From Methanothrix sp. (GTDB lineage: Archaea; Halobacteriota; Methanosarcinia; Methanotrichales; Methanotrichaceae), in the NCBI GenBank assembly GCA_025361645.1, contig JANYKI010000026.1, positions 18 through 64,017 on the forward strand: DNA of 64,000 nucleotides, given 5' to 3'. The translations under genes and the position numbers were made by a program. Shown piece by piece: positions 1 through 48,191 of this stretch (positions are counted from its first letter, which is position 1; every line of letters starts with the position of its first letter). Below the pieces are notes generated by a model. That model was not told where the DNA came from and searched no databases. It worked only from the letters and a program-made list of their open reading frames with translations.

Positions 1-536
1 AACCCGACAGGGATTGAAACCAGGAGGGCGATAGCTGCCCATTCGGAACGGGGGATGGTTGCAGCGCACTTGAAAACCCGACAGGGATTGAAACATAATA
101 CCCCTGAATCCTCTATATGGGAAGAAAAGTCAAAGTTGCAGCGCACTTGAAAACCCGACAGGGATTGAAACTGATCGATCACTAGGCGGGACCCCTTCGC
201 AAGGGCGTTGCAGCGCACTTGAAAACCCGACAGGGATTGAAACACTTTTTGTGTGTAGTTCCTGCTCGTCATTTCCTGAAGTTGCAGCGCACTTGAAAAC
301 CCGACAGGGATTGAAACAGCTTCCCGAAATGGTTTTCTGCTCCGAACGCGTTGATGTTGCAGCGCACTTGAAAACCCGACAGGGATTGAAACTGGAATCA
401 ACCGCGACGTTCAACGTATAATCGATTGTTGCAGCGCACTTGAAAACCCGACAGGGATTGAAACAGATTAGGACGCTTGCGCCCAGATCTCGGCCTGTCG
501 TTGCAGCGCACTTGAAAAACCGACAGGGATTGAAAC
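1..536 (+). CRISPR. CRISPR array, trailer end: 37-bp repeat GTTGCAGCGCACTTGAAAACCCGACAGGGATTGAAAC; 1 partial + 7 full repeats, 7 spacers
   Basis: Repeats at 1-20 (partial), 58-94, 135-171, 207-243, 281-317, 356-392, 428-464, 500-536; unique spacers of 37, 40, 35, 37, 38, 35, 35 bp. The last repeat has a substitution (AAAAACCG), as expected at a trailer. The ATTGAAAC 3' end implies + orientation. Confidence 0.98.
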
Positions 537-599
537 GCCCATGAGCCCAGGCAGGGGCTCACACGTGATGGATGGGAAACAAGATCAATCGACATTATG

Positions 600-631
600 A
601 ATTCAGTTTCCCATAGGAAACTTTCGGAAAA
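600..631 (+). repeat. 32-bp direct repeat, copy A (AATTCAGTTTCCCATAGGAAACTTTCGGAAAA)
   Basis: 29/32 identical to 1291-1322; contains the near-palindrome TTTCCCATAGGAAA. Confidence 0.85.
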
Positions 632-672
632 TAAGTAAGTTCGATTTCCTTTGCTGGATAAAGTGCAGTCTC

Positions 673-867
673 TCAATCGCCTTCTTGCATTTTACGACAT
701 AATGCTACTCCTTCCTTGCTCAGCGCATAAGTCATCTCTCCTCGGGTTGGATGCATTAAGACATATCCCAAGCTTATGAGCTTACGCAATGCTTTTTTAA
801 CCTCTCGTCCTGCCTCTGTGTGTCTGCGGGCGAAGGCCTTCTCTGGGACGTGAGCAGACTTGCTCAT
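673..867 (-). CDS. small hypothetical protein, possible winged-helix-like fold
   Basis: 64-aa ORF with EVKKALRKLISLGYV helix followed by a beta-hairpin-like segment; divergent from 904..1257 with a TATA-like sequence between them. Confidence 0.55.
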   Translation of the reverse strand: MSKSAHVPEKAFARRHTEAGREVKKALRKLISLGYVLMHPTRGEMTYALSKEGVALCRKMQEGD

Positions 868-903
868 CTATATTGATATACTTACAGAACGCTATTAGTA
901 AGC

Positions 904-1257
904 ATGCAGTCAAAAGCAAGACGTCCTGCAATCGAGAGAGCAAGGGACGCACGGCTGGAGAGGGGCGGCGATACCGATTATGAGCTATATGAACTGATTA
1001 GCGAACACTCTGGACAGGGCGCTTATGAGCTCTCTAAGCTGAATGGCTGGACTGCAGGCCGCACGCACTCATCAATATTGCGATTGGAGAAAAAAGGGCT
1101 CGTATTTGTGGAGCGTATTGTGCAGGGTGGGAGGACAAAGCTTGTAGTTCGCCCCAGGCCCTGGCAGGAGTTCTTCACTCCAAAGGAGCTTGAAGAAATG
1201 CGCCAGCCCGGATACTTCGATGAAGTCGAGAAAATGGTGAAGCGGACAGAGGACTGA
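904..1257 (+). CDS. winged helix-turn-helix protein
   Basis: 117 aa; YELSKLNGWTAGRTHSSILRLEKKGLV is a wHTH-type pattern. Confidence 0.7.
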   Translation: MQSKARRPAIERARDARLERGGDTDYELYELISEHSGQGAYELSKLNGWTAGRTHSSILRLEKKGLVFVERIVQGGRTKLVVRPRPWQEFFTPKELEEMRQPGYFDEVEKMVKRTED

Positions 1258-1290
1258 AGGGCCACATAATGGCATCTCTATCGACGTAAA

Positions 1291-1322
1291 AATTCAGTTT
1301 CCCATGGGAAAATTGCGGAAAA
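1291..1322 (+). repeat. 32-bp direct repeat, copy B (AATTCAGTTTCCCATGGGAAAATTGCGGAAAA)
   Basis: Matches 600-631; contains the perfect palindrome TTTCCCATGGGAAA at 1298-1311. Confidence 0.85.
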
Positions 1323-1361
1323 AAATAGTTACGGATCTTCGCGATTTTCAATTTTTAAAGG

Positions 1362-1417
1362 AGTCTCTGTGCGTCCTCTGTGTCTCTGTGGTGGAGTAGT
1401 CGTTAGCTGTTGGTTAT
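1362..1417 (-). repeat. core-only inverted copy of the CACAGAG composite repeat
   Basis: Reverse complement reads ATAACCAACAGCTAACGACTACTCCACCACAGAGACACAGAGGACGCACAGAGACT, matching the core ATAACCGAACAACTAACGATCTCACCACAGAGG... at 3548, 4518, 5447, 6428. Confidence 0.85.
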
Positions 1418-1515
1418 GGTCCAAATGGTCAACGGTACTACCACCTTTGCATGACACGGGAAGCGCACAAAGGACTTGATTTATTCCATGATCGGTTCGG
1501 CAGAGTTAACCAATC

Positions 1516-1905
1516 TCAGCGCGCGTCGCAGTACCTCACCTCATCCACATCCAGCATGAGGGGCGTACCGGGCTCAAAGTTGGTTATCTTTCTCACCCGG
1601 CCCACGGCCACAAGTTGCAGTTGTACTCTTGCCGCCTGAGACTCACGCTCTTCGTAGTAGTCCTCGTTTGATTGAACTGTGCGATGGGTAATGATCTGTA
1701 GAGCTCTTATGCTGGCGATGAGCCCCCCAGTTCCTGGAACTATATCCGGGGCACTGGACTGCGTAAGAAAGATCCGGTCTCCCGGCTGAACACGCAAAAG
1801 CGTAAAGAAGTTGTTGGGGCTACGAATCTCCACCGTCCTGACCCGAGCTGCAGTAAGCTCATTCATCACATGTCTTGCCAATCCCGTTAGCGCTATGTAG
1901 ATCAT
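1516..1905 (-). CDS. DUF473 family protein
   Basis: 129 aa; ALTGL...RTVEIRSPNNF pattern of the archaeal DUF473 family, adjacent to the PAC2 gene. Confidence 0.75.
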   Translation of the reverse strand: MIYIALTGLARHVMNELTAARVRTVEIRSPNNFFTLLRVQPGDRIFLTQSSAPDIVPGTGGLIASIRALQIITHRTVQSNEDYYEERESQAARVQLQLVAVGRVRKITNFEPGTPLMLDVDEVRYCDAR

Positions 1906-1911
1906 GAGGCA

Positions 1912-2655
1912 TCACCCGTACATGGGAAACTCTTTGGGCATCTGAGCTTGCTGTTCCTCGGAAGAGGTGGTTTTCATCTGCTGGGCCAGTTGCGCCATCT
2001 GCACCTCGATCTGCTCAGCCTGCTCGGAGAGCTTGGCCGTGTTTATCCCCAAATCGTAGATCTTATTAAGCGTCTCGATAGTGGCAATGGCCGCTTTTGG
2101 GTCGGGTTCCGCTGAAGCCGTCTCGCCCAAAAGGCAGATAGCGGGTAGATTTCTTATGCGGCACTCGTTCATGATGCTGCCGGTAATGCCGGTAATTGTC
2201 CCCATCTCAAAGATCTCGGCCTTGTCCTTTATCTTATCAAGCAAATCTTGCCGGCTTACTGCGCCAAAGACCCGGTGCAGGTCTCCCATCACCGTTATGC
2301 CAGCCAGGCAGACCATCTCTCGAGCGCCTATAGACTCTGCAAAGGATACAATCTCCTTTCCAATCTCATAAGAGGCCAGGGGATGTACGGGAATGTCGGC
2401 TGTGAGGATTACCAGGCCCTTGGCCACATCCTCATAAATGCGAACCGGCATGTTCACAACGCCGCCTGTGAGAACGGCCAGCGGAGGGAAGTACCGGGAG
2501 CTCATGGCCCCGAGATAGGTCATTTTCAGTTCGTTGACGATGTACTGGCTGGCAATGTTTCCTACCAGGCCAATTCCCGGGAATCCCTCGATCAAGAGTG
2601 GGTTCTTGACGGAGGGCTCATTCTCAAGGATTACCTGGACGATTTCCTTATCCAT
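1912..2655 (-). CDS. proteasome assembly chaperone (PAC2) family protein
   Basis: LIEGFPGIGLVGNIA N-terminal motif; ICLLGET...PDPKAA; C-terminal MYG. Confidence 0.9.
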   Translation of the reverse strand: MDKEIVQVILENEPSVKNPLLIEGFPGIGLVGNIASQYIVNELKMTYLGAMSSRYFPPLAVLTGGVVNMPVRIYEDVAKGLVILTADIPVHPLASYEIGKEIVSFAESIGAREMVCLAGITVMGDLHRVFGAVSRQDLLDKIKDKAEIFEMGTITGITGSIMNECRIRNLPAICLLGETASAEPDPKAAIATIETLNKIYDLGINTAKLSEQAEQIEVQMAQLAQQMKTTSSEEQQAQMPKEFPMYG

Positions 2656-3062
2656 GCAAAAATGTTAGGCATTTATCTGAGATAAGAGCATCGCTTCATG
2701 AAGGAGGATGACAAAAAGGATGACAAAAAATTTTTCCCCACAATTCGGGGGCTTTGCACATCATGCAAAACTATATTTGCCCATACTAACAACTCCACCT
2801 TAATGAATCGTAATGATTTTTTTAAGATTCTGGAATAATTTATGGTGATATAGATTTATCGGATATATAGATGAAGAAATCCATTCTGTTGGCAAAAGAA
2901 GAAAGCGTGGCGGACTTATAAAATCTGACCGGATATTAAGATTGATAGTAATGACGGGAAAAGCACTATTTGATAATAATGAGATTAAAAATTATAAAAA
3001 ATTTCTAAAACAATTATCAAGAAAAGTATTCACTCATTTAATCATTATTGTTGAATGTGGAA

Positions 3063-3164
3063 TCATGATGCTTGATCAATCACTTCACCGATGCCGGGTG
3101 CATCATAGATTCCTGCCACTAAACCCAAATGTCCAACTATGCATGCATAGATATCCACATTCAT
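3063..3164 (-). pseudogene. remnant of an IS1634-family transposase N-terminus (DUF4277-like)
   Basis: Hand translation MNVDIYACIVGHLGLVAGIYDAPGIGEVIDQAS*; GHLGLVAG...GIGEVID resembles the IS1634 transposase start; stops after 33 aa. Confidence 0.6.
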
Positions 3165-3235
3165 GCTACTGCCCCGAGATGATCTAATAGCCTTCTAATT
3201 AAAATATGTTATCTATATTACTGCGGATTGTGGGA

Positions 3236-3325
3236 CTTAACGACGGTTCAGGCAGTCCCCGGCTTGGCGATTCTTACGGGGCTACCGAAAGCAGCGCCCG
3301 GCATCCTGTGAGCAGCATCGTCGGC
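3236..3325 (+). repeat. composite repeat, tail-only copy
   Basis: CTTAACGACGGTTCAGG...AAGCAGCGCCCGGCA...GCAGCATCGTCGGC aligns with 4591-4681. Confidence 0.8.
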
Positions 3326-3499
3326 GGTGCTCCTGCTCGCCTTCCCGTTCGCCGCTTGTGGGCCGGGCCGTCCGGGGCTTGCTGCTCTGTCATCAGGGCG
3401 GTCTGGATTGCCTGACAAGCGCTCGTGCAAGGGGGGCCGGGAGGCCGGTCGGGCCTGAGAGCCAGGAAGAGCTGGACTCTGGCGAAGGCGGCTTCTCCG

Positions 3500-3682
3500 T
3501 GGGCTGGATTTTAGGAAACGATCGCCGTTTCTTATTATTATTAGCTTATAATTATAACCGAACAACTAACGATCCCACCACAGAGGCACAGAGGCACAGA
3601 GCGCACAGAGGACGCACGGAGATGGCTCTTTAACAAAGGTTCGGGACCATTGTCCGGCTTAGCAATTCTTGCGGGCTACCGG
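3500..3682 (+). repeat. composite repeat copy 1 (core, 5 heptamers, tail)
   Basis: GGATTTT...ATAATTATAACCGAACAACTAACGATC at 3548, CACAGAG-type heptamers, TTAACAAAGGTTCGGGAC...TTCTTGCGGGCTACCGG. Confidence 0.92.
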
Positions 3683-3776
3683 ATACCTGCGACCGTCTCT
3701 TCGGGGGGGGCAGGAGGCCGGGCGGGCCGGGATCAGGAGGTGCTTAAGGAATGCTGCCGATTACTAAAATAAATAG

Positions 3777-4319
3777 CTAGAGGGCGATCTTAGCTTTTAT
3801 TTGGGAGACGTCGGATTCTATTCTTATCAACCTGCCTTCCAGGTTTTCCTTTAGATCAACGCGAAGCTCTCTAATCTCGCTTACGACAGCATCGCGTGAC
3901 TCATTGATAGACTCATTAAGGTCTTCATGTGTCTCCGTCAATTCTTTGCGAGTTGCCTTTATTTCGTTCAATATCTTTTCGTTTACTACGATAAGCTTCG
4001 TGAGCAGTTCTGCTGCTACATCCAGTCTCTGATCCGTCTCGCCTCCGGATACAACCTTGACAAAGCTGTCAAAATCGCCTGTTGCAGGAGAATGCTTGCT
4101 CTTGATATCAACCACATTGATAATTGTGTTCTTGATAGCCAAAGCCGCCAGCAGGCTCTCCAGATCACACGCTTCGCCCTCCGCCACCACCTTGACTCGC
4201 CCATCATCCAGATTCTGCACGTAACCTTTCAGACCGAAGTCACGAGCAATGGTGAGAACTCTGGCTCTGTAGCCGGTCTTCTGGACCTTGCCGGAGACGT
4301 AAGCGGTTAGCCTTTGCAT
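3777..4319 (-). CDS. acylphosphatase-domain protein with C-terminal coiled-coil-like extension
   Basis: MQRLTAYVSGKVQKTGYR...GLKGYVQNLDDGRVKVVAEG is the acylphosphatase signature. Start set at ATG 4319; the track's upstream 72 codons come from the repeat. Confidence 0.85.
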   Translation of the reverse strand: MQRLTAYVSGKVQKTGYRARVLTIARDFGLKGYVQNLDDGRVKVVAEGEACDLESLLAALAIKNTIINVVDIKSKHSPATGDFDSFVKVVSGGETDQRLDVAAELLTKLIVVNEKILNEIKATRKELTETHEDLNESINESRDAVVSEIRELRVDLKENLEGRLIRIESDVSQIKAKIAL

Positions 4320-4376
4320 GAGGACATATGTTGCTCTCTTTTTATTTAAGCCTTTAACCCTTGGGCGGAGAACCAT

Positions 4377-4681
4377 TTTGCAGCAGGCTCCGGCCCGCAT
4401 GCGTGCGCTCGGGCGGAGGCGCTGCTGCCCGCGTGGGTAGCCTGCTGTGGGCTTGGCTGGGCGATCTTCCGGCGCGGGATTTTGGAAGATGCTGCATCTC
4501 GCTATTACTATTAGCCGATAATTATAACCGAACAACTAACGATCTCACCACAGAGGCACAGAGCGCACAAAGGACGCACAGAGACGACCTCTTAACGAAG
4601 GTTCGGGACAATTCTACAACTTGACGATCCTTGCGGGCTATCGGAAGCAGCGCCCGGCAGCCAGTGGGCAGCATCGTTGGC
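4377..4681 (+). repeat. composite repeat copy 2 (GC-rich arm, core, 4 heptamers, tail)
   Basis: Most complete copy; core at 4518. Confidence 0.95.
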
Positions 4682-4795
4682 AGGATACCGATTGCGCTTC
4701 TGTTTCGTTGCCCGAGGACCGGGCCATCCGGGACTGCGGCGCTGCTCGCCAGGCGGGCCTCGATGCCAGGTTGAAATATGTCTTTCGAATTGATG

Positions 4796-5011
4796 CTATC
4801 CGAGATGCTTCAAGAAATCCTCTTCAGTTATGTCCAACTGCTTGAGAATTTCGTAGAACAGCCAGTTGCCTATTTCGCTATTGCCGTGTACTGGAATCGT
4901 TGTCGCTCGACCGTCGGGGTGCTTCCATCTGGCGTGACTTCCTTTTTGCCTCACCATCTGAAATCCGAGCTTCTTTGCGACCTTTTGCAGGTCACGAGCT
5001 TTGGCAGGCAT
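4796..5011 (-). CDS. hicA: HicA family toxin
   Basis: LGFQMVRQKGSHARWKHPDGRATTIPVH; overlaps the upstream hicB. Confidence 0.92.
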   Translation of the reverse strand: MPAKARDLQKVAKKLGFQMVRQKGSHARWKHPDGRATTIPVHGNSEIGNWLFYEILKQLDITEEDFLKHLG

Positions 5012-5222
5012 GAACGGCCTTCACATCGATATCTTCCGGAAGCATGCGACCTTCTTCGTTGTACTCTTCCAGGATCATCTCGAAGACGTTTATCAGCTCA
5101 GATTGTGCCTCTTCGGGTGTTTGGCCCCAGGAGTGGCAGCCTGGAATAGCAGGGACGTAGGCTGCATAGGTGCCGTTGTCTTCAGGGCGGAGCACTATTG
5201 TGTAGTCATAAAGGCGTTTCAT
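4992..5222 (-). CDS. hicB: HicB family antitoxin (short form)
   Basis: YTIVLRPEDNGTYAAYVPAIPGCHSWGQTPEEA. Confidence 0.92.
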   Translation of the reverse strand: MKRLYDYTIVLRPEDNGTYAAYVPAIPGCHSWGQTPEEAQSELINVFEMILEEYNEEGRMLPEDIDVKAVHACQSS

Positions 5223-5320
5223 CAGGATTTACTCAGTCCTATTTGCATATAATACTACTCAATGATGTCTGCGCGTACAAAGATGCGATTCCACACCTTG
5301 GCAACACGAGAAAAGGATCG

Positions 5321-5578
5321 GCCCCGCATGCGTGCGCTCGGGCAGGGGGCGCTGCTGCCCGCGCGGGCCGCCGACTGCGGGCTTGGAAGGATGTTTTTCC
5401 GGGCGCGGGATTTTGGAAAGCAATGGCAATTGGTTATTATTATCTGATAATTATAACCGAACAACTAACGATCTCATCACAGAGGCACAGAGCGCACGGA
5501 GACGACCTCTTAACGAAGGTTCGGGACAATTCTACTGCTTGACGATCCTTGCTGGCTACCGGCAGCCGCGCCTGGCAG
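5321..5578 (+). repeat. composite repeat copy 3 (arm, core, 3 heptamers, tail)
   Basis: Core at 5447; tail CTCTTAACGAAGGTTCGGGACAATTCTAC identical to copy 2. Confidence 0.95.
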
Positions 5579-5720
5579 TTCGTCGCCCATGCAGAAGAGA
5601 AGGCACTGGTCCCGGATCGCTTTCCGTTCGCTGCCTGTGGGCCGGTCGTCCAGGTCCGTGTCGTCGTCTGCCTGCATATCGTTCAGGTCTTAATTTATGG
5701 TGCAGAGAAAAAGAGGATAG

Positions 5721-5942
5721 CTAATCTGCGAAGAGCCACTCATCACGAGTGATCTCACCTTCTCGAAGGATCTCAGAGATTAGATTTGTGCCAATCTCTC
5801 GTCGATGAGAGTTCGGTATGCGCACAAAATTATCACCGCGGACCATGAAGTCATGATCTGAACCGGGAAACGGTCCCTCAAATCCAATTTTTCTCAATCG
5901 CCTGATCAGCTTCGCCCTTGAAACCGGCACAAGTTTACTCAA
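5721..5942 (-). CDS. hicA: HicA family toxin
   Basis: LRKIGFEGPFPGSDHDFMVRG...VRIPNSH, a HicA-type dsRBD pattern. Confidence 0.85.
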   Translation of the reverse strand: MSKLVPVSRAKLIRRLRKIGFEGPFPGSDHDFMVRGDNFVRIPNSHRREIGTNLISEILREGEITRDEWLFAD

Positions 5943-6192
5943 TAGCGCTCACCGGTTCAATTGATGCAGTTATCAGGTGGCCGCCAATTGGTGGTATGGA
6001 CCGCCCCATGCGAAGCCTAAGAGCGATCCAGCCTTCAATAACCGAGATAAGCTCTTTGCGGGCCTCTTCAACCGTTTTGCCCGTAGCCCAGGCGCCATGA
6101 AGCTCTGGTACTGAAACAAAGATAGGATCCTCATCTTCGATGGTTTTGTAAACAGCCCTTTCCAGAGCCGCCTCAATATACTCGGCGAACAT
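5935..6192 (-). CDS. hicB: HicB family antitoxin (short form)
   Basis: IFVSVPELHGAWATGKTVEEARKEL...EGWI. Confidence 0.88.
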   Translation of the reverse strand: MFAEYIEAALERAVYKTIEDEDPIFVSVPELHGAWATGKTVEEARKELISVIEGWIALRLRMGRSIPPIGGHLITASIEPVSAIE

Positions 6193-6305
6193 ATTGAGCT
6201 TATATCGTGAGGTAAAGGAAATATACCTTGCGCCATTGCCTTTTGAAGCACATCGGAGCCGGCAAAGATGCTTGATGCCTGAACAGTTGCCGGGCCGCAG
6301 GGCAA

Positions 6306-6520
6306 GCGCCCGCGTGCGCTCGGGCGGGGGGCGCTTGTGCCTACGTGGGCAGCCGCTCGCTGTGGCCTGGCAGTTTTGCGGGCGCGGGATTTTGGAAGAT
6401 GCTGCATCTCGCTATTACTATTAACTGATAGTTATGACCGAACAACTAACGATCTCACCACAGAGGCACAGAGCGCACGGAGGACGCACAAAGACGATTC
6501 CATAATGAAGGTTTCGAGAC
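6306..6520 (+). repeat. composite repeat copy 4 (arm, core, 4 heptamers, truncated tail)
   Basis: Core ATAGTTATGACCGAACAACTAACGATC at 6428; the tail ends 6 bp before the stop codon of the 6526..7260 gene. Confidence 0.93.
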
Positions 6521-6525
6521 CCCGT

Positions 6526-7260
6526 TCAAACCTCGAATAACTTGAGTTCTATCCTTGGTGGTCCTTCGATTCTGTCATCTAATTTTATGGTGGATGCATT
6601 TCCATCATTGCCGTTACCTGGAATATAGCAGCGCTTCATAGCACCTTCTTTCTGTACGTGAGCAGAACAAGCTGATGCAATGCCATAATGGCAGAACTTC
6701 TTCATTGCGTCCGTTGATCTAAAGCCATGACCTCTGTGAATAAGATCAACAACAATCTTTGGCCTCCTTTTTATCAATGCATTCCTTATGCGCTCATTGA
6801 AAAGTTCTCCGCATAATAGGACGCCAACAAGCCCGCCTTCTGTCGTAAGAAGACGAACATCATCGTAGCTCTGCCGTTTAGCTTCCCATTGATTGTCGGT
6901 TAGTGTAATTGGCTGCCCACTCCGTTTATTCCAGTGTCTGGTAGATGATCTTTGTTCCCAACTATATGTCATTTTGTCAACTGGACTCCAGGCATATCCA
7001 TATGCTTGGGGCCAACTCTGATCGTCCACGCCAAAAACTACAGCACGCTCTAAGCTACGAGCTTCATCTATGAGCACATCTGCTATTTGTTGCCTTGATT
7101 TAAAGTTATTACCAACTACGAAGCCCCCGGGAAGTACTAATATATCCGCGCCCAATGATTTCGCCTTTGCCATCGCCAGTTTTCCGGCTTTTAGTCGGCC
7201 TTCATTTTTGGATTCGTCTTCAGGCCCTTTGCTCCCAACAGTAGTTATGGCAACCTTCAT
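6526..7260 (-). CDS. divergent carbon-nitrogen hydrolase (nitrilase-fold) protein
   Basis: KVAITTV N-terminal strand, ADILVLPG (PE motif has lost Glu), VGVLLCGEL (nucleophile Cys retained). Confidence 0.6.
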   Translation of the reverse strand: MKVAITTVGSKGPEDESKNEGRLKAGKLAMAKAKSLGADILVLPGGFVVGNNFKSRQQIADVLIDEARSLERAVVFGVDDQSWPQAYGYAWSPVDKMTYSWEQRSSTRHWNKRSGQPITLTDNQWEAKRQSYDDVRLLTTEGGLVGVLLCGELFNERIRNALIKRRPKIVVDLIHRGHGFRSTDAMKKFCHYGIASACSAHVQKEGAMKRCYIPGNGNDGNASTIKLDDRIEGPPRIELKLFEV

Positions 7261-7366
7261 TTTTATCCTCTCTGTGACTTGCTCACATAGCTATGAATAG
7301 TTATAGTGATTGCATTAAGGCCATTCATGAAAACATTTTAAAACGTTGGTGTATGAAGCGACCTTT

Positions 7367-8071
7367 ATGACAATTGCTGATGCAACTGATCAACAAGTTG
7401 AGACTTTAGTGGCAATGGCTAAAAATCTTCGAAACACATACAGAAAGGAATTGGAGTGCAAGAAGGAAAAAGGACATGCCACACTCAAGAGACCTGATTT
7501 CTTGTGGCATGAACTATTAGTGAGCTATTCAACTTGGGGCGGCATAAGCAGAAACGAAGGTATGATCACCGACAAAAATAGAAATCAGCAGATCACTTAT
7601 GATGAACTGAAGAACCTCAGCAATGAAGACCGTGTGAATAGGATTAGGCAAATCTTGAAGGATGCAAAGGTACACTACTACAAGAAAAAAGCTCCGATGC
7701 TTGCACGATGCTTTGAGATAATTGAAGAGATGGGTGGATTAGAGCAGGCCAATGCAATGCTGCTCAATAAAAAATGTGCAGCAGAAATGATTGAATTTCT
7801 GGACGATTTTCCGGGAATAGGTCCGAAGTATGCAAGAAATATTATGATGGATTGCCATCATCCGTTTTTCCGTGAAAAGATAGCGCTTGATTCACGCATC
7901 CGGTCCGTATCTAACGAATTGGGGCTGAATCTAAAGGCGTACCAGGATCATGAAAAATTCTACTTGAATATTGCAGAAGAAGCGGGAATAGAGGGATGGG
8001 AATTAGACCGATTGATTTTTGAACACAGAGACGAATTTCTAAATGCCTTAAGATCCACCTCCGAGCCTTAA
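7367..8071 (+). CDS. HhH-GPD-type DNA glycosylase/AP lyase-like protein
   Basis: FPGIGPKYARN helix-hairpin-helix with Lys, then IALDSRI Asp. Start is ATG 7367 or TTG 7346. Confidence 0.7.
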   Translation: MTIADATDQQVETLVAMAKNLRNTYRKELECKKEKGHATLKRPDFLWHELLVSYSTWGGISRNEGMITDKNRNQQITYDELKNLSNEDRVNRIRQILKDAKVHYYKKKAPMLARCFEIIEEMGGLEQANAMLLNKKCAAEMIEFLDDFPGIGPKYARNIMMDCHHPFFREKIALDSRIRSVSNELGLNLKAYQDHEKFYLNIAEEAGIEGWELDRLIFEHRDEFLNALRSTSEP

Positions 8072-8121
8072 TGCGTTACCATCTCCCAAACCTTTATCTC
8101 CTATCACCTCTTCCCTCCTTT

Positions 8122-8160
8122 AGTTCCGGAATGTGACCCGTTTTGGGTCGAACCGGTATG
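8122..8160 (+). promoter_or_regulatory. structured 5' leader of rpl15e, candidate ribosomal protein leader
   Basis: CCGG(8126-29)...GACCC GTTTT GGGTC...CCGG(8153-56) two-helix stem with an asymmetric internal loop, ending 15 nt before the ATG. Confidence 0.5.
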
Positions 8161-8171
8161 GGTGAAAAGAA

Positions 8172-8759
8172 ATGAAGTCTTTTTACAGTTATATCAGTGA
8201 TGCTTGGTCCTCTCCTCGAGAGGGATATGTTGGCGCACTGCGGCAGGACAGGCTCAAGGCCTGGCGCCAGGAAAGCACCGTGCAGAGGATAGATAAGCCC
8301 ACCCGCCTGGACAGGGCGCGCGCGCTCGGCTACAAGGCCAAGCAGGGCATTGTCATGGCACGTGTCAAGGTAAGACGCGGTGGACGGCGCAAGTCCCGTT
8401 ATGAGAGGAACCGAAAGACCAGCAAGATGGGCGTGAACGCCATCAGCATGGGCAAGTCCATTCAGAGGATCGCTGAGGAGCGGGCCGGAAGACGGTACCG
8501 CAACATGGAAGTTCTAAACTCTTACTGGGTGGCTGAGGATGGCAAGCAGAAGTTCTACGAGGTCATTTTAGTGGACCCGTGTGCTCCCTCCATCATGAAT
8601 GATAAGAACCTTAACTGGGTCTGCAATGATGTTCATCGCGGTAGGGCCGTGCGCGGCAAAACCAGCGCCGGTCGCAAGGGCAGAGGCCAGAGGCACAAGG
8701 GCTTCGGCACTGAGAAGACCAGGCCCGGCATCAGAGCCCACGACGGAAAAGGAAAGTAA
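8172..8759 (+). CDS. rpl15e: 50S ribosomal protein L15e
   Basis: [21 protein letters not shown]; [10 protein letters not shown]. Confidence 0.98.
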
Positions 8760-9176
8760 GTGATTGACAAGGTCTCTTTCCGGGCCTTTGTGGCAGCAAC
8801 GGAAGACGAGGGCCGCGTGCGCGAGGCGCTCGCTGTCTTCGTTCCTCTGGACCGGATATCAGGAGTTACTGCTGAAGGCCATTTCGGAAACGAGATAAAA
8901 ATACTGGAGGCGGAGCTGCGAAAGCGTGAGGCTGCCGCCTTCTTTCAAATTCTTCGCGAGCAGCTTCCAACGGAAGACCTGCAGAGGCTTCGCCGGGAGA
9001 TCCCGGACCGGTTGGAGGGCGAAAGCCACTTCCACCTGCGCCTGGACAAACAGGCCGCCTACAAAGGCCTGCTGCGCCTGACCGACTCCAAGGATGCCCT
9101 GGACACAACAGTTCTCGTCAAGACCTATCCCGCCCGGCGCGAGTCGGCCTTGAAGATTATCAGCGAGCTCATATGA
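8760..9176 (+). CDS. DUF54 family predicted RNA-binding protein
   Basis: ATEDEGRV...GHFGNEI...HLRLDKQAAY; conserved position between rpl15e and rnp3. Confidence 0.85.
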   Translation: MIDKVSFRAFVAATEDEGRVREALAVFVPLDRISGVTAEGHFGNEIKILEAELRKREAAAFFQILREQLPTEDLQRLRREIPDRLEGESHFHLRLDKQAAYKGLLRLTDSKDALDTTVLVKTYPARRESALKIISELI

Positions 9177-9850
9177 GTTTTTTCGAATGCTTGAACGCCT
9201 TTCCGGAAGGTGCAGCCTCAGCTAGCCGCATGGCTCTGACTGCCAAGGGACTGGGCTATCAGGGCATAATCATCTGCAACTCTGAGCCGGGCAGGATCTT
9301 CATGCCCCAGGCAGCCGAGATGATCAAGGGAATCGAAGTGGCCGTCGGCGTAGAGGTGACGGCGCCTGGCAGCAAGGCGCTGAAAAGCCGCATCTCAGCT
9401 CTGCGTTCCAGATATCCATTTATCGTGGTTCGGGCCGGATCGGATGAGACAATCCGGGCGGCCTCTGAAGACCCCAATGTGGACCTTCTCATGCATCCTT
9501 GCGACGTGCGGCGTCCTTTAGGCATCGCCACAGCCCGAGCCGCCAAGCTAAATCAGGTCTCCATCGGCTTTGACCTGAGTGGCCTGGTGCACCTAAGGGG
9601 TGCCTCGCGTTCTCGCTGGCTGCAAGCTGTTCGCCGCAATCTGCAGCTTGTGAGAAAGTTCGATCTACACCCGGTTATCACCGCGAGCGCGAATTCCCAC
9701 CTTGACCTGCATTCTCCCCGGGACCTGGTGGCTATGGCAGAGGTGGCGGGCTTTGAGCAGGATGAGGCTAAGGAAGCTCTCTCTCGGTCGGGAATACTGC
9801 TGGCCCTCAATCGCAGAAAATGGGTAGGCCCGGGAGTAGAGCTCCTATGA
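9173..9850 (+). CDS. rnp3: RNase P protein component 3 (Rpp30)
   Basis: PHP-like barrel pattern, ANSHLDLHSPRD; operon context. Confidence 0.9.
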   Translation: MSFFECLNAFPEGAASASRMALTAKGLGYQGIIICNSEPGRIFMPQAAEMIKGIEVAVGVEVTAPGSKALKSRISALRSRYPFIVVRAGSDETIRAASEDPNVDLLMHPCDVRRPLGIATARAAKLNQVSIGFDLSGLVHLRGASRSRWLQAVRRNLQLVRKFDLHPVITASANSHLDLHSPRDLVAMAEVAGFEQDEAKEALSRSGILLALNRRKWVGPGVELL

Positions 9851-10386
9851 GAAGCAGACTTCCCGTGCTGCGGGGCAGAAGACGGTACATGATCTTCGAG
9901 CTTGTGTCGGAAGGCGAAATTTCGCCTAAAGATCTGATGAGCGAGATTAACTCATCTCAGTTTTCCCTTTTCGGCGACGAGGGAGCCGCGAAAAACCATC
10001 TCAAAATGATCGCTTTCAATGGCCGCTATGGCCTGATCCGTTTTTCCCATATCCATGTTCAGGAGACACGGGCAACATTGGCCACGGTTCATTCCATTCA
10101 CGGGATTCGAGTCGCCATCCATACAAAAGGCGTCTCGGGAACAATCAAATCCGCTACAGAAAAGTATTTACCAAGACTGAGCAAAATATGTGCTGAAAGC
10201 GACAAAAGAAGAATCGAACTGAAAGACGTTTCCGGGTGTATTATCCGCACCCATGGTGTAAAAGTCGATCTATGTCCGGACGATCGCAATAAGTGCATAG
10301 GATCAGACACCCAATATTTGGGGCTGACCTCTTTTGATTTAAGTGGAGGACACGAGGATGCAGATGGCACCGCAGATGGGTTATGA
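9847..10386 (+). CDS. rnp2: RNase P protein component 2 (Pop5/Rpp14) with C-terminal extension
   Basis: [11 protein letters not shown]...GVSGTIK motif; ATG overlaps the rnp3 stop. Confidence 0.88.
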
Positions 10387-11134
10387 CAGGGCTATTACCG
10401 TATTCAGCCCTGACGGCAGATTATTTCAAGTTGAATATGCCCGCGAGGCCGTGCGAAGAGGAACGACGGCTGTGGGCATCAAGTCAAAAGACGGCGTGGC
10501 TGTACTGGTAGACAAGAGAATCACCAGCAGGCTCATGGAGCCCAAGTCCATTGAGAAGATCTTTCAGATAGACACGCACATCGGCGCCGCCACTTCTGGC
10601 CTGGTAGCAGACGCCAGAGTCCTGATCGACAGATCCCGGGTAGAGAGCCAGATAAACCGGCTGGTCTACGACGAGCCCATTGGTGTAGAGGCCCTGGCCA
10701 AGAAGATCTGCGACTTCAAGCAGCAATATACTCAGTACGGCGGAGTAAGGCCCTTTGGAACGGCGCTGCTCATCATTGGCGCAGAGGAGGATAGAACTCG
10801 CCTCTTTGAGACCGACCCGTCCGGCGCTTTATTGGAATACAAGGCAACGGGCATTGGAGCCGGCAGATCGTCAGTGATGGAGGTCTTCGAGGAGAAGTAT
10901 AGAGAAGACCTGACCATGGATGAGGCCGTGCTCTTGGGCCTGGAGGCGCTCTACAAGGCTGCGGAAGGCAAGGTAGAAGCGGCCACAACTGAGATTGGCA
11001 TCATCAAACTGGGCGACAAAAAGTTTTACAAATTGACGGAGAATGAAGTCGCCACTTATGTTGAACGTATGAAGGCAGCCGTCGCCGCCAGCAAAGTTGA
11101 GAAGGGAGAGAAAGGAGAAAAAGGAGAGGCATAG
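10358..11134 (+). CDS. psmA: proteasome subunit alpha
   Basis: [25 protein letters not shown]. Confidence 0.98.
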
Positions 11135-11136
11135 GA

Positions 11137-11835
11137 ATGGTCAGACTGGATGACGCAGTTCCTGCCAGACTCAAGACCCACGGAACCACCTTTGAGGTTT
11201 TAGTGGATCCCGATGGAGCCCTGGCCCTGAAGAGGGGGGACCGCGTCAACCTGGAAGATATCCTGGCAGTAGAGGATATCTTTGAAAATGCCTCTCGTGG
11301 AGACCGTAGCCCGGAAGAAGATCTGCAAAAGGCCTTCGGCACGTTGGAAGTCCTGCCCATTGCCGAGATCATCATTAAAAAGGGCGATATCAGCCTGACG
11401 GCTGAGCAGAGAAAACAGTTCATCGAGAATAAACGCCGCCAGGTCATAGAGGTCATAGCCAGAAATGCTATCAATCCCCAGACCAAAACACCTCACCCGC
11501 CTGGAAGAATCGAGCAGGCCATGACCGAGGCCCGCGTCAATATCGACCCCACGAAATCCATCGATGAGCTGGTCAAGATCGCCATGAAGGCCATCCGGCC
11601 TCTTATCCCCATAAGATTCGAGGAGGTTGAGGTGGCGGTAAAAATCCCTTCCGCGTATGCTCCCAAGGCTTACGGCGAAGTTGCAGCCTACGGCAAGCTC
11701 AGTCGGGAGGCATGGCAGAACGATGGCTCATGGATTGGCGTGGTCCAGATACCGGCAGGCATGCAGACCGAATTCTACGCCCTTATCAACCGGCTGACCA
11801 GAGGCGAAGCTGAGACGAAGCTTCTTAAGCATTGA
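11137..11835 (+). CDS. ribosome maturation factor, SBDS/Sdo1 family
   Basis: ARLKTHGTTFEVLVDP...INPQTKTPHPPGRIE. Confidence 0.95.
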   Translation: MVRLDDAVPARLKTHGTTFEVLVDPDGALALKRGDRVNLEDILAVEDIFENASRGDRSPEEDLQKAFGTLEVLPIAEIIIKKGDISLTAEQRKQFIENKRRQVIEVIARNAINPQTKTPHPPGRIEQAMTEARVNIDPTKSIDELVKIAMKAIRPLIPIRFEEVEVAVKIPSAYAPKAYGEVAAYGKLSREAWQNDGSWIGVVQIPAGMQTEFYALINRLTRGEAETKLLKH

Positions 11836-11854
11836 GGATGGGAGTTAAAAGCGC

Positions 11855-12520
11855 ATGGATCGCAAGGTGGTAGTACCAGGTGATCTTCTCTCTGAGGATG
11901 CCAAGAGGTCGGGCGAGGGGACGTATGTAAAGAATGGAAGCGTCTACTCCTTGCTATATGGTCTTGCGAACTTTAGGGATAAGATAAATGTCATACCCCT
12001 GGCGGGAAAGTATGTACCCGTACCGGGGGACAACGTCATAGGTGTCGTGAAGGATATAACCTTCTCCAATTGGATCGTGGATATAAACTCGCCCTACGAT
12101 GGGCTGCTGCACATCTCTGAGTTCCCAAAAAGGATCGAATCGGAAGAGATGTCCAAGCATTTGCACATTGGCAGCTCTATCATGACCCGGGTGACGGATG
12201 TAGATCCCACTATGAAGGTGGAGCTTACTTTGAACGACAAAAAGCTCGGCCTGATCAAGGCCGGCCAGGTCATCGAGATAAGCCATACAAGAGTTCCCAG
12301 GCTCATAGGCAAGGGCGGCTCCATGATCAGCATGCTGAAGAAAGAGGTAAACTGTAACATCTTCGTTGGCCAGAACGGCAGAATCTGGATCCACGGGGGT
12401 ACAGAGGATATGGATCTGGCTCTGAAGACCATAACTCTGATTGATCGGGAAGCCCATACCAATGGTCTCACGGACCGGATTGTGGACTTCCTAAAGACGG
12501 AGAAAGGGGCCAGAAGTTGA
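11855..12520 (+). CDS. rrp4: exosome RNA-binding protein Rrp4
   Basis: VVPGDLL N-terminus, S1 and KH domains ([10 protein letters not shown]). Confidence 0.95.
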
Positions 12521-16810: not shown

Positions 16811-18454
16811 ATGATGAGCGAACGCGACAAAAGAGTATTTTTGAAGATAATAGGAGCGGCAGTTATAGTATTTATCATAGTCTATATGTGGCCTATAGGA
16901 GATATCTACTCAACCATCAATGTGAATAAAGTCAAGCATACACCGGACCCAAATATTCCTCAACCCCTAGGCACGAAAGACATCTTGCCCGATATTAAAT
17001 CCGAATACCCGCCGCAGGTGAACGAAAGCACATCCAGCTACATCGAAATATTCTCCTCAACGGAAAAAGCGGGCAGCGGTACTGACGGCTGGCTGACAGA
17101 TGTGGCCAAAGACTTCAATAACGCAGCAATAATGATTGACGGCAAACGTGTATCGATAAGGCTCAGAGGAATCCCTTCCGGGGATGGTTACGATTATATC
17201 ACTTCCGGGAAGCATTTGCCGGATGCCTATACGCCGTCCAATGAACTCTGGGGCGAGATGATCACCTCTCGCGGGGTTAAAGCCCAGTTAGTGCAAAAGA
17301 GACTTGCCGGCAATGTGGCTGGGATACTGATCAGCAAAGCTAAGAAGGACGAGCTGGCAGCCAAATACGGGGCAATCAATATCAAGACGGTTGTCGATGC
17401 TGTCGCGAACAATGAACTGGTGATGGGCTACACCAATCCGTTTGCCAGTTCAACCGGGCTGAACTTCTTGATTTCAGCTTTACAGACATTTAACAGCAGC
17501 AACTTATTGAGCGATGAAGCAATAGCAGGATTTGAAAGCTTCCAGGCCAATATTCCAGTGGTCGCCTTAACTACTCTGCAATTGAGGGAATCGGCCAAAT
17601 CAGGTAAACTGGACGGTCTTATCCTGGAATACCAGACTTATATGAATACGCCGGATATCAGGTCTTACGAATTCATACCCTTTGGAGTCAGACATGACAA
17701 CCCGATGTATGCGATCGGCGAACCATCAGCGGATAAAATTAAAATCCTGAATAAGTTCGTCGAATTCACTCAACAGGAAAAGTACCAGAACCTGGCCACT
17801 AAATATGGTTTCAACGGCCTTGATCAATACCAACCCGAAGCGGAGGCCGTCAGTGGCGATGTGATCATCCAGGCCCAAAAATTCTGGAAAGAAAAGAAAA
17901 ACGCTGGCAAACCTATTTGCGCAGTCTTTGTGGCCGATGTCTCCGGCAGCATGGACGGTGAACCGCTGAATAAATTGAGACGTTCATTGATCGATGGTCA
18001 ATACTATATCGGCGAGGACAATCTGATTGGCCTGATTTCATATTCCAACGATGTCAATATCGATTTGCCGATTGCCAAATTCGACTTGAAACAGAGGTCC
18101 TTGTTTGCCGGAGCAGTTCGTGATTTGCAGGCCGGCGGCAGCACGTCAACCTTTGATGCCATTGCGATCGCCATGAAGATGCTCATAGATCAGAAGGCGG
18201 TAGGTCCTGATGCAGACCCCAATCTGAAACCGAAGATTTTCGTTCTCAGTGACGGCAAAAGCAATACAGGCCATTCACTGGACGACATTAGAAAAATCGT
18301 GAAGGAGCTGGGAATGCCTATATACACAATTGGCTATAATGCGAATCTCCCGGAGTTAAAAGAGATCTCCGATATAAATGAGGCTGTCTGTATTGACGCC
18401 GATACCGAGAATGTTGTGATTAAGATTCGCAATCTGTTTAATGCCGAATTGTAA
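16811..18454 (+). CDS. solute-binding-like protein with C-terminal vWA domain
   Basis: N-terminal TM/signal; MIDAS DVSGSM, ST.FDAI and LSDG motifs. Confidence 0.85.
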   Translation: MMSERDKRVFLKIIGAAVIVFIIVYMWPIGDIYSTINVNKVKHTPDPNIPQPLGTKDILPDIKSEYPPQVNESTSSYIEIFSSTEKAGSGTDGWLTDVAKDFNNAAIMIDGKRVSIRLRGIPSGDGYDYITSGKHLPDAYTPSNELWGEMITSRGVKAQLVQKRLAGNVAGILISKAKKDELAAKYGAINIKTVVDAVANNELVMGYTNPFASSTGLNFLISALQTFNSSNLLSDEAIAGFESFQANIPVVALTTLQLRESAKSGKLDGLILEYQTYMNTPDIRSYEFIPFGVRHDNPMYAIGEPSADKIKILNKFVEFTQQEKYQNLATKYGFNGLDQYQPEAEAVSGDVIIQAQKFWKEKKNAGKPICAVFVADVSGSMDGEPLNKLRRSLIDGQYYIGEDNLIGLISYSNDVNIDLPIAKFDLKQRSLFAGAVRDLQAGGSTSTFDAIAIAMKMLIDQKAVGPDADPNLKPKIFVLSDGKSNTGHSLDDIRKIVKELGMPIYTIGYNANLPELKEISDINEAVCIDADTENVVIKIRNLFNAEL

Positions 18455-48016: not shown

Positions 48017-48150
48017 TAATAGCGAGATGCAGCATCTTCCAAAATCCCGCGCCCGGAAGATCGCCCCGCCAAGCCCACAGGCGGCTGCCCACATAGGCAC
48101 AAGCGCCCCCGCCCGAGCGCACGCACGCGGGGCCGGAACCTGCTGCAAAA
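48017..48150 (-). repeat. inverted copy of the GC-rich arm of the composite repeat
   Basis: Reverse complement TTTTGCAGCAGGTTCCGGCCCCGCGTGCGTGCGCTCGGGC...GCGCGGGATTTTGGAAGATGCTGCATCTCGCTATTA aligns closely with 4377-4508. Confidence 0.93.
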
Positions 48151-48191
48151 TATGACTTGGCCGCTCTCCGATGGGATTATATACTCAGTAC

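Follow-up and report, generated by a model that had tools for sequence, protein, structure and literature searches.

A Methanothrix-specific mosaic repeat separates reshuffled toxin-antitoxin modules in cassette-like arrays

What separates, and possibly moves, the small unrelated genes that lie at regular intervals near rpl15e in a Methanothrix genome? An earlier note on the 64,000-nucleotide stretch analysed here (the window; window coordinates equal those of contig C33 minus 17) had described a core sequence recurring at four sites between such genes and had read the locus as a cassette capture or shuffling system. The recurrence is real: the 18-mer ACCGAACAACTAACGATC is identical in all four copies (3557, 4527, 5456 and 6437), with 0.06 matches expected by chance and four or more found in none of 100 shuffled sequences, and the spacing of 970, 929 and 981 bp is likewise confirmed. 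The 27-mer originally noticed is perfect in three copies and agrees at 25 of 27 positions in the other (ATAGTTATGACC...).

The cores belong to four direct composite repeats of 270-360 bp each, accompanied by one tail-only copy (Table 1; extents were set by nhmmer profile matches). R1 combines an 'A1'-type GC-rich arm, an AT-rich palindromic centre, five CACAGAG-type units and an internally deleted tail, and R2 is flanked by the acylphosphatase gene (5' end) and by hicA1 (3' end). The tail of R4 is truncated by the 3' end of the 244-amino-acid gene p244, which overlaps it rather than ending 6 bp away as had been proposed. The tail-only copy, 87% identical to 4635-4681, is present as described, but it directly abuts the GC-rich arm of R1 and is not followed by a gene-free interval; an AT-rich, gene-poor interval (2656-3235) lies on its far side.

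Pfam matches uphold the unrelated minus-strand cargo between the copies, i.e. an acylphosphatase gene and two unrelated hicBA pairs, the latter forming the minus-strand operons hicB1-hicA1 (4796-5222) and hicB2-hicA2 (5721-6192). A TATA-like box of its own precedes the ATG of the acylphosphatase gene by about 25 nt. Among array cargo other than toxin-antitoxin (TA) genes, relatives of this gene are the commonest, with 10 members at 9 loci, and stretches homologous to this cargo occur at about 10 places in the source genome. The fixed end of the array is formed by p244 and p241, a divergent pair that is single copy in the genome. The 'nitrilase-fold' label given to p244 was too firm: the gene has no Pfam match and its similarity to CN hydrolases is weak (E 0.008-0.2).

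Table 1. Repeat copies and genes in the window
Feature	Position	Strand	Evidence
Isolated repeat core	1356-1417	-	nhmmer 22.9 bits
Tail-only (module C) copy	3236-3326	+	nhmmer, model positions 223-314
R1, composite copy 1	3400-3759	+	nhmmer 301 bits
Cargo 1, acylphosphatase domain with C-terminal coiled coil	3777-4322	-	PF00708, E 5e-19
R2, composite copy 2	4373-4713	+	nhmmer 348 bits
Cargo 2, hicA1	4796-5011	-	HicA, PF07927, E 2e-20
Cargo 2, hicB1	4992-5222	-	HicB, PF15919, E 6e-9
R3, composite copy 3	5302-5636	+	nhmmer 336 bits
Cargo 3, hicA2 (HicA-like)	5721-5942	-	PF07927, E 3e-5, below Pfam cut-off
Cargo 3, hicB2 (UPF0150/HicB)	5935-6192	-	PF21748, E 1.5e-25
R4, composite copy 4	6287-6557	+	nhmmer 243 bits, model positions 3-265
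p244, 244-aa CN-hydrolase-like gene	6526-7260	-	weak family match
p241, 241-aa HhH glycosylase-like gene	7346-8071	+	weak family match
Half copy, GC-rich arm only, beside TetR gene	48017-48151	-	89% identity to R2 arm

The repeat is a mosaic intergenic family specific to Methanothrix. Units are about 300-400 bp long, and a first model located 76 copies on 33 contigs of the source genome, rising to about 96 on 38 contigs upon iteration. Repeats are found in 20 of 25 sampled Methanothrix genomes and in none of 16 sampled others of the same class. When 185,579 species genomes were scanned with a sequence pattern, matches came from Methanothrix/Methanotrichaceae only, and no match was obtained among the viral contigs, plasmids or phages searched. 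Many copies had been anticipated, and they exist both genome-wide and across the genus. The association with accessory TA modules is also strong in the source genome and beyond this locus. Most of the 79 inter-repeat gaps measure 600-1300 nt, and array cargo comprises HicAB, HepT/MNT, UPF0175 with DUF3368-PIN, PIN, ParE, DUF4258, TumE and acylphosphatase families. Most modules are type II TA pairs and appear to carry their own promoters; the genome contains 57 TA or acylphosphatase homologues, 20 of which have a repeat no more than 1 kb away. Each cargo type is largely constant in its orientation relative to the repeat, while this orientation differs among types.

Every unit follows one plan, in which GC-rich arms, composed of several modules that can replace one another, surround a highly conserved centre consisting of an AT-rich palindrome (ATAATTAT/GGTTATAACC) and, after it, a run of 4-5 CACAGAG-type units. 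The arms evolve fast (55-77% identity among repeats) whereas the centres (92-99%) evolve in concert: in the G046 genome paralogous centres (99%) are closer to each other than orthologous centres (94%). Across species, conservation of the centre exceeds that of adjacent coding genes, which suggests protein binding or another function beyond what the explanation preferred below accounts for.

Comparison of related genomes demonstrates that cargo order and content at the rpl15e locus differ between species and strains. Reading outward from rpl15e, the source genome and JAYSOE01 carry p241, p244 / hicBA2 / hicBA1 / AcP (the acylphosphatase gene), G046 and L110 carry p241, p244 / hicBA1 / AcP / hicB2 / Band_7, and G015 carries p241, p244 / AcP / hicBA2. 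L107 and L112 retain the G046 order minus p241/p244, one junction of this absence falling inside the repeat tail; G041 and L109 show still other arrangements, and in seven further species the site lacks the repeat. Cassettes are also common to different loci. The hicBA1 module resides in a different array in G012, and on the metagenome contig L114 a full repeat, hicB1 and another HicBA module precede an orthologous TetR gene (93.6% identity), where the source genome has a half-repeat scar only; this half copy is what remains of a second array site. These differing orders and absences, together with an identical HicB1 protein in at least five different neighbourhoods, support cassette-like gain, loss and reshuffling of modules.

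It is very improbable that the different orders merely reflect assemblies scrambled at the repeats, in the source and in other metagenome-assembled genomes (MAGs). The compared genomes are mostly MAGs, repeat arrays are hard to assemble and k=31 unitigs break at each repeat centre, but the stretches common to copies span only about 40-50 nt and copy-specific variants are present at every junction. The order of the source array recurs identically in the public MAG contig JAYSOE010000158.1, and alternative orders occur on 98-100 kb contigs with names in long-read style, a style also seen in the contig names of G046 and G012, and recur in several samples.

We consider it unlikely that the modules are moved by a dedicated site-specific system, integron-like or pdif/Xer-like. 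Such a system would excise and insert them by means of a recombinase or nuclease that has escaped recognition, its target being either the centre, with the CACAGAG run and a 28-bp imperfect palindrome (TTATTAGCTTATAATTATAACCGAACAA), or some site within the GC-rich arm. The strongly conserved centre does have a dif-like geometry, with two imperfect 11-bp inverted arms and a 6-bp spacer, cargo types mostly hold their orientation, and the three best-resolved arrays differ beside the fixed end at p244, a pattern in line with addition of new cassettes there. Yet neither tyrosine (PF00589) nor serine (PF00239) recombinases were detected in the 97%-complete source genome, and in the 3-kb neighbourhood of the repeats no gene for an enzyme turns up repeatedly. 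The co-occurring recombinase that had been expected is likewise not seen across Methanothrix, where tyrosine recombinases are patchy, occurring in repeat-free genomes and being missing or fragmentary in the repeat-rich G012, G019, G046 and G016. Searches for attC-like sites gave none, the repeats contain no attC-type motif pair, and they are direct copies, unlike the alternating sites of pdif modules. Moreover, a fixed breakpoint in the repeat, which had also been predicted, was not found, and the multi-part mosaic junctions cross over at varied positions. R4 joins a hicB2-linked repeat on the left to the p244-linked repeat of L110 on the right through a crossover within the arm, and R3 is a four-part mosaic when mapped against L110 Rc, G000 R2 and G015 Rw. 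As 37 of 59 cassettes have their arm-side (left) repeat edge between model positions 0 and 40, and as two crossovers (R4 and the TetR/L114 site) map to the same region, the arm may contain a preferred crossover site; in the centre, homogenisation erases the signal by which a fixed crossover could be located. Thus a real, reshuffled cassette-like array stands, while the system proposed to drive it has neither a dedicated enzyme nor a site of its own that we could find, and an integron-like dedicated system is not supported.

Even less probable is transposition, in which the repeats would be MITE-like ends or derivatives, and a transposase acting in trans would move them with the enclosed cargo in the manner of a composite transposon. 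The conserved core is indeed half of a dispersed, MITE-like palindromic element of about 155 bp with inverted CTCTGTG/CACAGAG arms of about 40 nt, present as at least 10 stand-alone near-full copies in the source genome and dozens in relatives, and the orthologous UbiX locus contains it in three genomes, lacks it in five and has it truncated in two. This element is unlinked to cargo and matches no known IS. The objection raised in advance, that the repeats might be IS or MITE ends, applies in part. A target-site duplication could not be assigned unambiguously to the element, and sites scored as 'empty' retain a flank-matching piece and may therefore be deletions. Array copies are one-armed and direct, leaving the cassettes without inverted ends, and the source genome contains no IS-sized pair of element ends. 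The sole core-adjacent DDE transposase has unrelated inverted repeats and was merely inserted into a core, and the single Y1 transposase locus bears no similarity to the repeat. About as doubtful as a dedicated enzyme is the proposal that the repeat is a functional unit, i.e. a promoter/terminator insulator or a small-RNA gene kept for TA regulation, with mobility as a by-product and the array arising from tandem duplication and subsequent gene replacement, a scheme compatible with our preferred explanation. Conservation of the centre far above the arms, its palindromic TATA-like box, a CACAGAG run ending in TTTTT in several copies, the short GC hairpin with TTTT just upstream of the centre in many, and metatranscriptome assemblies spanning a copy in G005 (3,008,626-bp chromosome) are in line with this proposal. 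Against it, the repeat matches no Rfam family, RNAalifold gave no consensus structure for 38-104 copies on either strand, local hairpins barely exceed shuffled sequences (mean z -0.9), and the transcript contigs are flat in depth with no discrete unit. Repeat orientation relative to cargo varies among cargo types, isolated cores are found between convergent genes, as at 1356-1417 between wHTH117 and DUF473 (an arrangement repeated in G015), and the varied orders of unrelated cargo call for more than regulation.

As neither an integrase nor a fixed recombination site is found, the reshuffling is most likely due to ordinary recombination between repeats. We therefore favour, at somewhat better than even chances, a BIME-like mosaic repeat serving as portable homology, which lets gene conversion and homologous recombination shuffle TA modules that bring their own promoters. 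In accessory islands, repeat units sit between small modules with apparent promoters of their own, each flanking repeat supplying 300-400 bp of portable homology. Host recombination could remove a module when the direct repeats on its two sides cross over, and the excised circle could re-insert at any other repeat, in its own array or in another, while gene conversion would homogenise the centres. Crossovers would be due to homologous recombination between 300-bp repeats of 80-90% identity rather than to an unknown enzyme, circular intermediates presumably exist, and the conserved centre probably has a role for the cell. The outcome would be an integron-like cassette array minus the integron mechanism.

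Archaeal integrons were reportedly described in 2022 (bioRxiv 10.1101/2022.02.06.479319), and the integron family includes sedentary chromosomal integrons and CALINs, i.e. attC clusters without an integrase. The Methanothrix arrays resemble integron arrays in their gene-site-gene layout, small unrelated cargo, enrichment in self-promoted TA modules, strain-variable order and content, and cargo orientation mostly fixed per cassette. They differ in having no IntI or other tyrosine recombinase (source genome), a repeat of 300-400 bp compared to 57-141 bp for attC, no RYYYAAC...GTTRRRY pair, single crossover point or attI/Pc platform, and cargo in both orientations with its own promoters. The pdif modules of Acinetobacter plasmids, which depend on XerC/D and 28-bp dif-like sites and often carry TA genes, are likewise discrete small TA-bearing modules bounded by short conserved sites, and the 28-bp palindrome of the Methanothrix centre shares their geometry. 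However, pdif sites alternate and need Xer, whereas the direct repeats of the source genome occur without any Xer-type enzyme, and the conserved unit is far larger and chromosomal. Enterobacterial BIMEs/REP and Neisseria Correia (NEMIS) elements are genus-restricted intergenic repeats with dozens to hundreds of copies. Like the Methanothrix repeat they are palindrome-centred mosaics of few modules that act as substrates for recombination and rearrangement and may hold promoter or terminator signals, but they are not known to form regular spacers between TA cassettes, and the Methanothrix repeat is archaeal and has a CACAGAG run. No counterpart of the REP-associated (RAYT) transposase was found for it. 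Both bacterial groups have been reviewed (PMC3184786, PMC10969869). Variable regions of Sulfolobales, rich in vapBC loci, MITEs and IS elements (PMC3718332, PMC3119797), are also archaeal and strain-variable and cluster TA loci with small mobile repeats, yet have no regular repeat-cargo-repeat period or common composite repeat flanking the modules.

The distal end of the array adjoins PAC2 in two assemblies only, that of the source genome and one near-identical MAG. In the others, rpl15e and PAC2 are on separate contigs or at least hundreds of kb apart. Logan contigs of four runs, which are assembled contigs rather than raw reads and probably derive from the source samples, hence being partly dependent, span 536-4296 unbroken, demonstrating that the junction between PAC2 and the array is not a binning artefact.

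The window carries four direct copies (R1-R4) of one composite repeat, as found both by reading the sequence and with a repeat finder. The 18-mer ACCGAACAACTAACGATC occurs exactly at 3557, 4527, 5456 and 6437, where 0.06 matches would be expected by chance, and the recurring core described in the earlier note is confirmed as a 27-mer that is exact in three of the four copies and identical at 25 of 27 positions in the remaining one. The copies are 270-360 bp long and share one order of parts, i.e. a GC-rich arm, an AT-rich centre containing the perfect palindrome ATAATTAT, a run of three to five CACAGAG-type units, the count differing among copies, and a GC-rich tail. All four window copies and most array copies elsewhere are arranged as direct repeats.

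Features of the window and of related loci. Plain numbers are window positions; C plus number denotes a contig of the genome holding the window (G000), or of G012 where so prefixed.
Feature	Location	Remarks
CRISPR array	1-536	37-nt repeats (GTTGCAGCGCACTTGAAAACCCGACAGGGATTGAAAC on + strand), Rfam CRISPR-DR60-like on minus strand; clipped by the window start, final repeat degenerate
Divergent 64-aa/117-aa pair	589-1430	117-aa gene wHTH-like, no Pfam match; pair flanked by 32-35 bp direct repeats
AT-rich stretch	2656-3235	no called gene; bridges the PAC2/DUF473 block and the array
Tail-only repeat piece	3236-3326	HMM from the copies
Repeat copy R1	3400-3759	HMM from the copies
Repeat copy R2	4373-4713	HMM from the copies
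Repeat copy R3	5302-5636	HMM from the copies
Repeat copy R4	6287-6557	HMM from the copies
Cargo (AcP): acylphosphatase-domain protein with coiled-coil tail		minus strand
Cargo (hicBA1): HicB/HicA pair		minus strand
Cargo (hicBA2): second pair, UPF0150-HicB/HicA-like, unrelated to the first		minus strand
p244 and p241 genes	6526-8071	CN-hydrolase-like, 244 aa; HhH glycosylase-like, 241 aa; no Pfam family
Half-repeat at TetR gene	48017-48151	no other repeat part retained
Free-standing element	C28:3007-3133	
Free-standing element	C37:5538-5664	
Free-standing element	C30:27932-28066	
IS4/IS5-type element	C86:12747-14260	437-aa DDE transposase, inverted repeats CATTGGTCATCGGTTAAG; inserted at a repeat-core centre
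Inverted half-elements	C73:4271-4347 and 17703-17776	13.4 kb apart, ordinary housekeeping genes between
GT2 glycosyltransferase gene fragments	C27:4000-13700	recur between facing repeat-core pairs
TnpB/OrfB-like gene at array L048	G012:C3:37687-38460	at one end of the array
TnpB/OrfB-like gene at array L049	G012:C3:278434-279408	at one end of the array

Three cargoes, every one encoded on the minus strand, lie between the repeat copies. Direct reading of the sequence agrees with the earlier note that each has its own TATA-like element, an AT-rich box ~25 nt 5' of the start codon. In G000 and the arrays fetched from ten relatives, the stretches that separate neighbouring repeats (79 gaps) are mostly 600-1300 nt long, and the recurrent cargo clusters comprise HicA/HicB, HepT/MNT, UPF0175 with DUF3368-PIN, PIN (three families), ParE, DUF4258 with a zinc-ribbon partner, TumE and acylphosphatase-coiled-coil genes, the last being the commonest cargo outside the toxin-antitoxin (TA) modules (10 members at 9 loci). 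Members of one cargo type mostly face the same way with respect to the repeat, and among types both orientations are found. The predicted association of repeats with accessory genes is strong, not exclusive: 20 of the 57 homologues of cargo genes in G000 sit ≤1 kb from a repeat, and by a rough estimate the zones within this distance make up less than 10% of the genome. Stretches homologous to AcP and its coiled coil occur at ~10 places in G000, some with a 'MLDKQD'-type repetitive coiled coil, and just two AcP-homologous stretches there lie near repeats, in contrast to the prominence of this cargo in the arrays of relatives. GC-rich ORFs within the repeats (18 members) were rejected as genes, because these Arg/Ala/Gly-rich read-throughs shift frame between copies.

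The repeat belongs to a large family. In G000 (141 contigs, 97% complete) the first HMM gave 76 matches on 33 contigs and one further iteration 96 on 38 contigs, so that many copies exist genome-wide as anticipated, with further arrays on contigs C30, C38, C27, C125 and C132. Of the 25 genus genomes sampled, 20 carry the repeat, compared with 0 of 16 taken from the class outside this genus, and a pattern scan of 185,579 species, one genome each, matched only Methanothrix/Methanotrichaceae MAGs. Cultured M. soehngenii has copies as well. Searches of viral contigs, plasmids and phages returned zero matches, and a viral or plasmid origin was rejected on this ground. A literature search found no description of this repeat family. 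Among 205 aligned copies the ~85-nt centre is the most frequently present and most conserved part, while the arms are found in about half.

The strongest evidence for exchange of modules comes from the rpl15e locus, where at least six arrangements are found across strains and species.

Gene order outward from rpl15e.
Genome or contig	Order
G000 and MAG contig JAYSOE010000158.1	p241, p244, hicBA2, hicBA1, AcP, PAC2
G046 and contig L110	p241, p244, hicBA1, AcP, hicB2, Band_7
L107 and L112	G046 order minus p241/p244
G015	p241, p244, AcP, hicBA2
G041	AcP-like gene, AcP
L109	497-aa gene, hicB2-like gene, hicB1, third HicB
G020 and G024	p241, p244, repeats, nothing more
Seven other species	site empty

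The HicB1 protein is identical in every context found. In G012 hicBA1 lies in another array, with a PIN module on one side and a UPF0175/PIN module on the other, and on metagenome contig L114 it adjoins a TetR gene, whose window orthologue (93.6% identity) keeps the isolated half-repeat. The p241-p244 genes are present or absent as a pair among near-identical strains and constitute an insertion/deletion, one junction of which lies within the repeat tail, directly 3' of TAACGAAGGTT. These comparisons show that modules come and go, change their order and are swapped between loci. The cassette shuffling put forward in the earlier note thus stands, and our confidence that the cassette-like polymorphism is genuine is high.

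The distal end of the array adjoins PAC2 solely in G000 and the near-identical MAG; in relatives holding both PAC2 and rpl15e the two are on separate contigs or ~0.3 to 1.8 Mb apart on one. As homology to the window ends at 2717-2749 in all those relatives, the AT-rich stretch next to the array is a rearrangement junction. Logan contigs from four runs holding the locus span 536-4296 unbroken. The arrays mark breaks in gene order.

The mapped junction repeats are mosaic, with crossovers at differing coordinates. The left part of R4 is hicB2-linked and its right part p244-linked, the crossover falling within a 95-nt stretch of the arm, and R3 is made up of four pieces from differing sources (global pairwise identity profiles proved too crude for locating cassette edges). 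Identity among repeats amounts to 92-99% in the centres and 55-77% in the arms. For G046, identity is 99% between two paralogous centres and 94% between orthologues, which indicates concerted evolution via gene conversion or repeated crossover. Mosaics and homogenised centres are the traces expected of homologous recombination on dispersed 300-400 bp homology and look unlike those of conservative single-site exchange. We lean towards homologous recombination and gene conversion between repeats as the mechanism, in which the dispersed repeats would supply the homology on which recombination acts. A dedicated enzyme driving cassette exchange, which would make the array considerably more important, seems unlikely. 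Two observations leave it some room: the arm-side repeat edge varies little, 37 of 59 lying within 40 nt, and homogenisation of the centre by gene conversion could mask a fixed crossover there. However, the junction repeats are mosaic and an attC-type motif pair is absent: the pattern RYYYAAC-N40-130-GTTRRRY gave no match on either strand of 3200-6600, where shuffled sequences average 0.38. Nor does the gene content of G000 point to such an enzyme. This 97%-complete genome contains no match to the tyrosine recombinase family PF00589, found in all 14 control genomes, and no serine recombinase, found in 12 of 14. Tyrosine recombinases have a patchy distribution over 31 genomes of the genus and are uncorrelated with the repeat, being present in repeat-free G008, G014 and G023 and absent or fragmentary in repeat-rich G012, G019, G016 and G046; for this family the suggested co-occurrence is not borne out. 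Within 3 kb of the repeats there is no recurrent enzyme-like gene. The p241/p244 pair was rejected as the array enzyme, as it is single-copy, confined to this locus and variably present. Its family matches are limited to weak glycosylase and CN-hydrolase similarities, so that the 'nitrilase-fold' assignment of p244 retains a weak similarity but lacks a Pfam match; moreover, the 3' end of p244 reaches into the truncated tail of R4 rather than ending 6 bp from it.

In behaviour the array resembles an integron array or CALIN: self-promoted TA cassettes are separated by a common site and shuffled, and cassette order and content vary between strains at one locus. Integrons and CALINs, however, depend on an IntI-type tyrosine recombinase beside the array or elsewhere, which G000 lacks, and attC sites are imperfect palindromes of 57-141 bp with R''(RYYYAAC) and R'(GTTRRRY) boxes, so the site is indeed unlike attC, given the length of the repeats and the missing motif pair. 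Modules of the pdif/Xer type combine an Xer-type recombinase with 28-bp sites alternating in orientation, unlike the direct repeats seen here. By every sequence-level feature considered, the array would thus fall outside both integrons and Xer-dependent pdif modules. The centre is dif-like, but an Xer/dif system was rejected for want of a tyrosine recombinase in G000; the study of archaeal dif sites that was consulted offers no Methanothrix site for comparison. An IS200/IS605 (PATE) origin was likewise discarded, as the sole Y1 transposase locus shows no similarity to the repeat and TnpB copies are not array-specific. We also consider improbable a hitherto undescribed, integrase-independent Methanothrix platform for cassette capture and shuffling, in which a protein would recognise either the centre, with its palindrome and CACAGAG run, or part of the GC-rich arm, and would excise and insert TA and other small modules. 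Such a platform, if real, would do in archaea what integrons do, with a different site and enzyme.

The centre also exists as a free-standing, ~155-bp palindromic element composed of a CTCTGTG run, the centre GGTTATAACC and a CACAGAG run. This element is small, non-coding and multi-copy, with ~40-nt inverted arms; at least ten near-full stand-alone copies are present in G000 and dozens in several relatives including G044 and G009 (80-90% identity). Array copies contain one palindrome arm only, fused to GC-rich modules. At an orthologous intergenic site near UbiX, G000, G012 and G041 carry the element, G001 and G016 retain its left end only, and it is absent from G013, G046, G015, G011 and G006. 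A possible TATT duplication is seen in an AT-rich context, but the 'empty' sites keep TATTCTATT, which also matches the flank of the element, and may be deletions. The stand-alone palindromic copies and the states of the UbiX site make the element resemble a MITE. Whether the repeats are ends of a known IS or MITE with duplications, as the earlier note had considered, is answered in part: the core is MITE-like in its inverted arms and copy number, but no partner IS was found in G000. G000 contains no IS-sized inverted pair of element ends, and the ends of its DDE and Y1 transposase loci are unrelated to the element. The DDE transposase on C86 was rejected as a partner, having unrelated inverted repeats and being itself inserted into a core. 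The half-elements on C73, each broken near the palindrome centre, could mark an inversion. Together with the insertion on C86 they hint at fragility in the centre of the palindrome.

The arm types A1 and A2, the centre, the tail and a CACGCGAAGGCGCGAAG module combine variably among copies. As in BIMEs, units confined to one lineage are pieced together in various ways from a few modules set around a palindrome. The closest in kind are the BIME/REP mosaic intergenic repeats and Correia-type MITEs, which act as recombination substrates, along with the Sulfolobales variable regions rich in TA modules and MITEs. An Rfam scan of 1-12000 matched only the CRISPR repeats, and in no segment of the HMM-aligned copies did RNAalifold recover a consensus structure, whichever strand was folded, so a structured small-RNA gene family was rejected; local hairpins 5' of the centre are only weakly better than shuffles. 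None of the RNA runs contains the window's repeat, and metatranscriptome contigs over a copy in G005 show flat depth, with transcript ends not resolvable. The TATA-like palindrome, the upstream hairpin-TTTT and, in some copies, TTTTT after the run are compatible with promoter/terminator activity.

Methanothrix is among the most abundant methanogens of sediments, wetlands and digesters, and to our knowledge its genome dynamics are poorly described. The repeat family offers a concrete, testable account of how an integron-less archaeon builds up and reshuffles a stock of TA and other small accessory modules, and could explain gene-order breaks at islands and the fragmentation of MAGs there. It also cautions that portable homology alone can yield an integron-like layout. 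The sharply conserved centre provides a defined DNA probe for finding any protein that binds it.

Further observations concern the neighbourhood of the arrays. Between the CRISPR array and DUF473, the 64-aa/117-aa module is followed by an isolated repeat core. The same module is found in G015, whereas G011 lacks it and its CRISPR repeats start ~280 nt past DUF473. The TnpB/OrfB-like genes of G012 each terminate a large array, while the TnpB copies of G000 lie mostly at contig ends and do not adjoin arrays. The facing cores around the glycosyltransferase fragments on C27 carry a ~100-nt extra insert, shared with the hicB2-linked repeats of G015 and G046.
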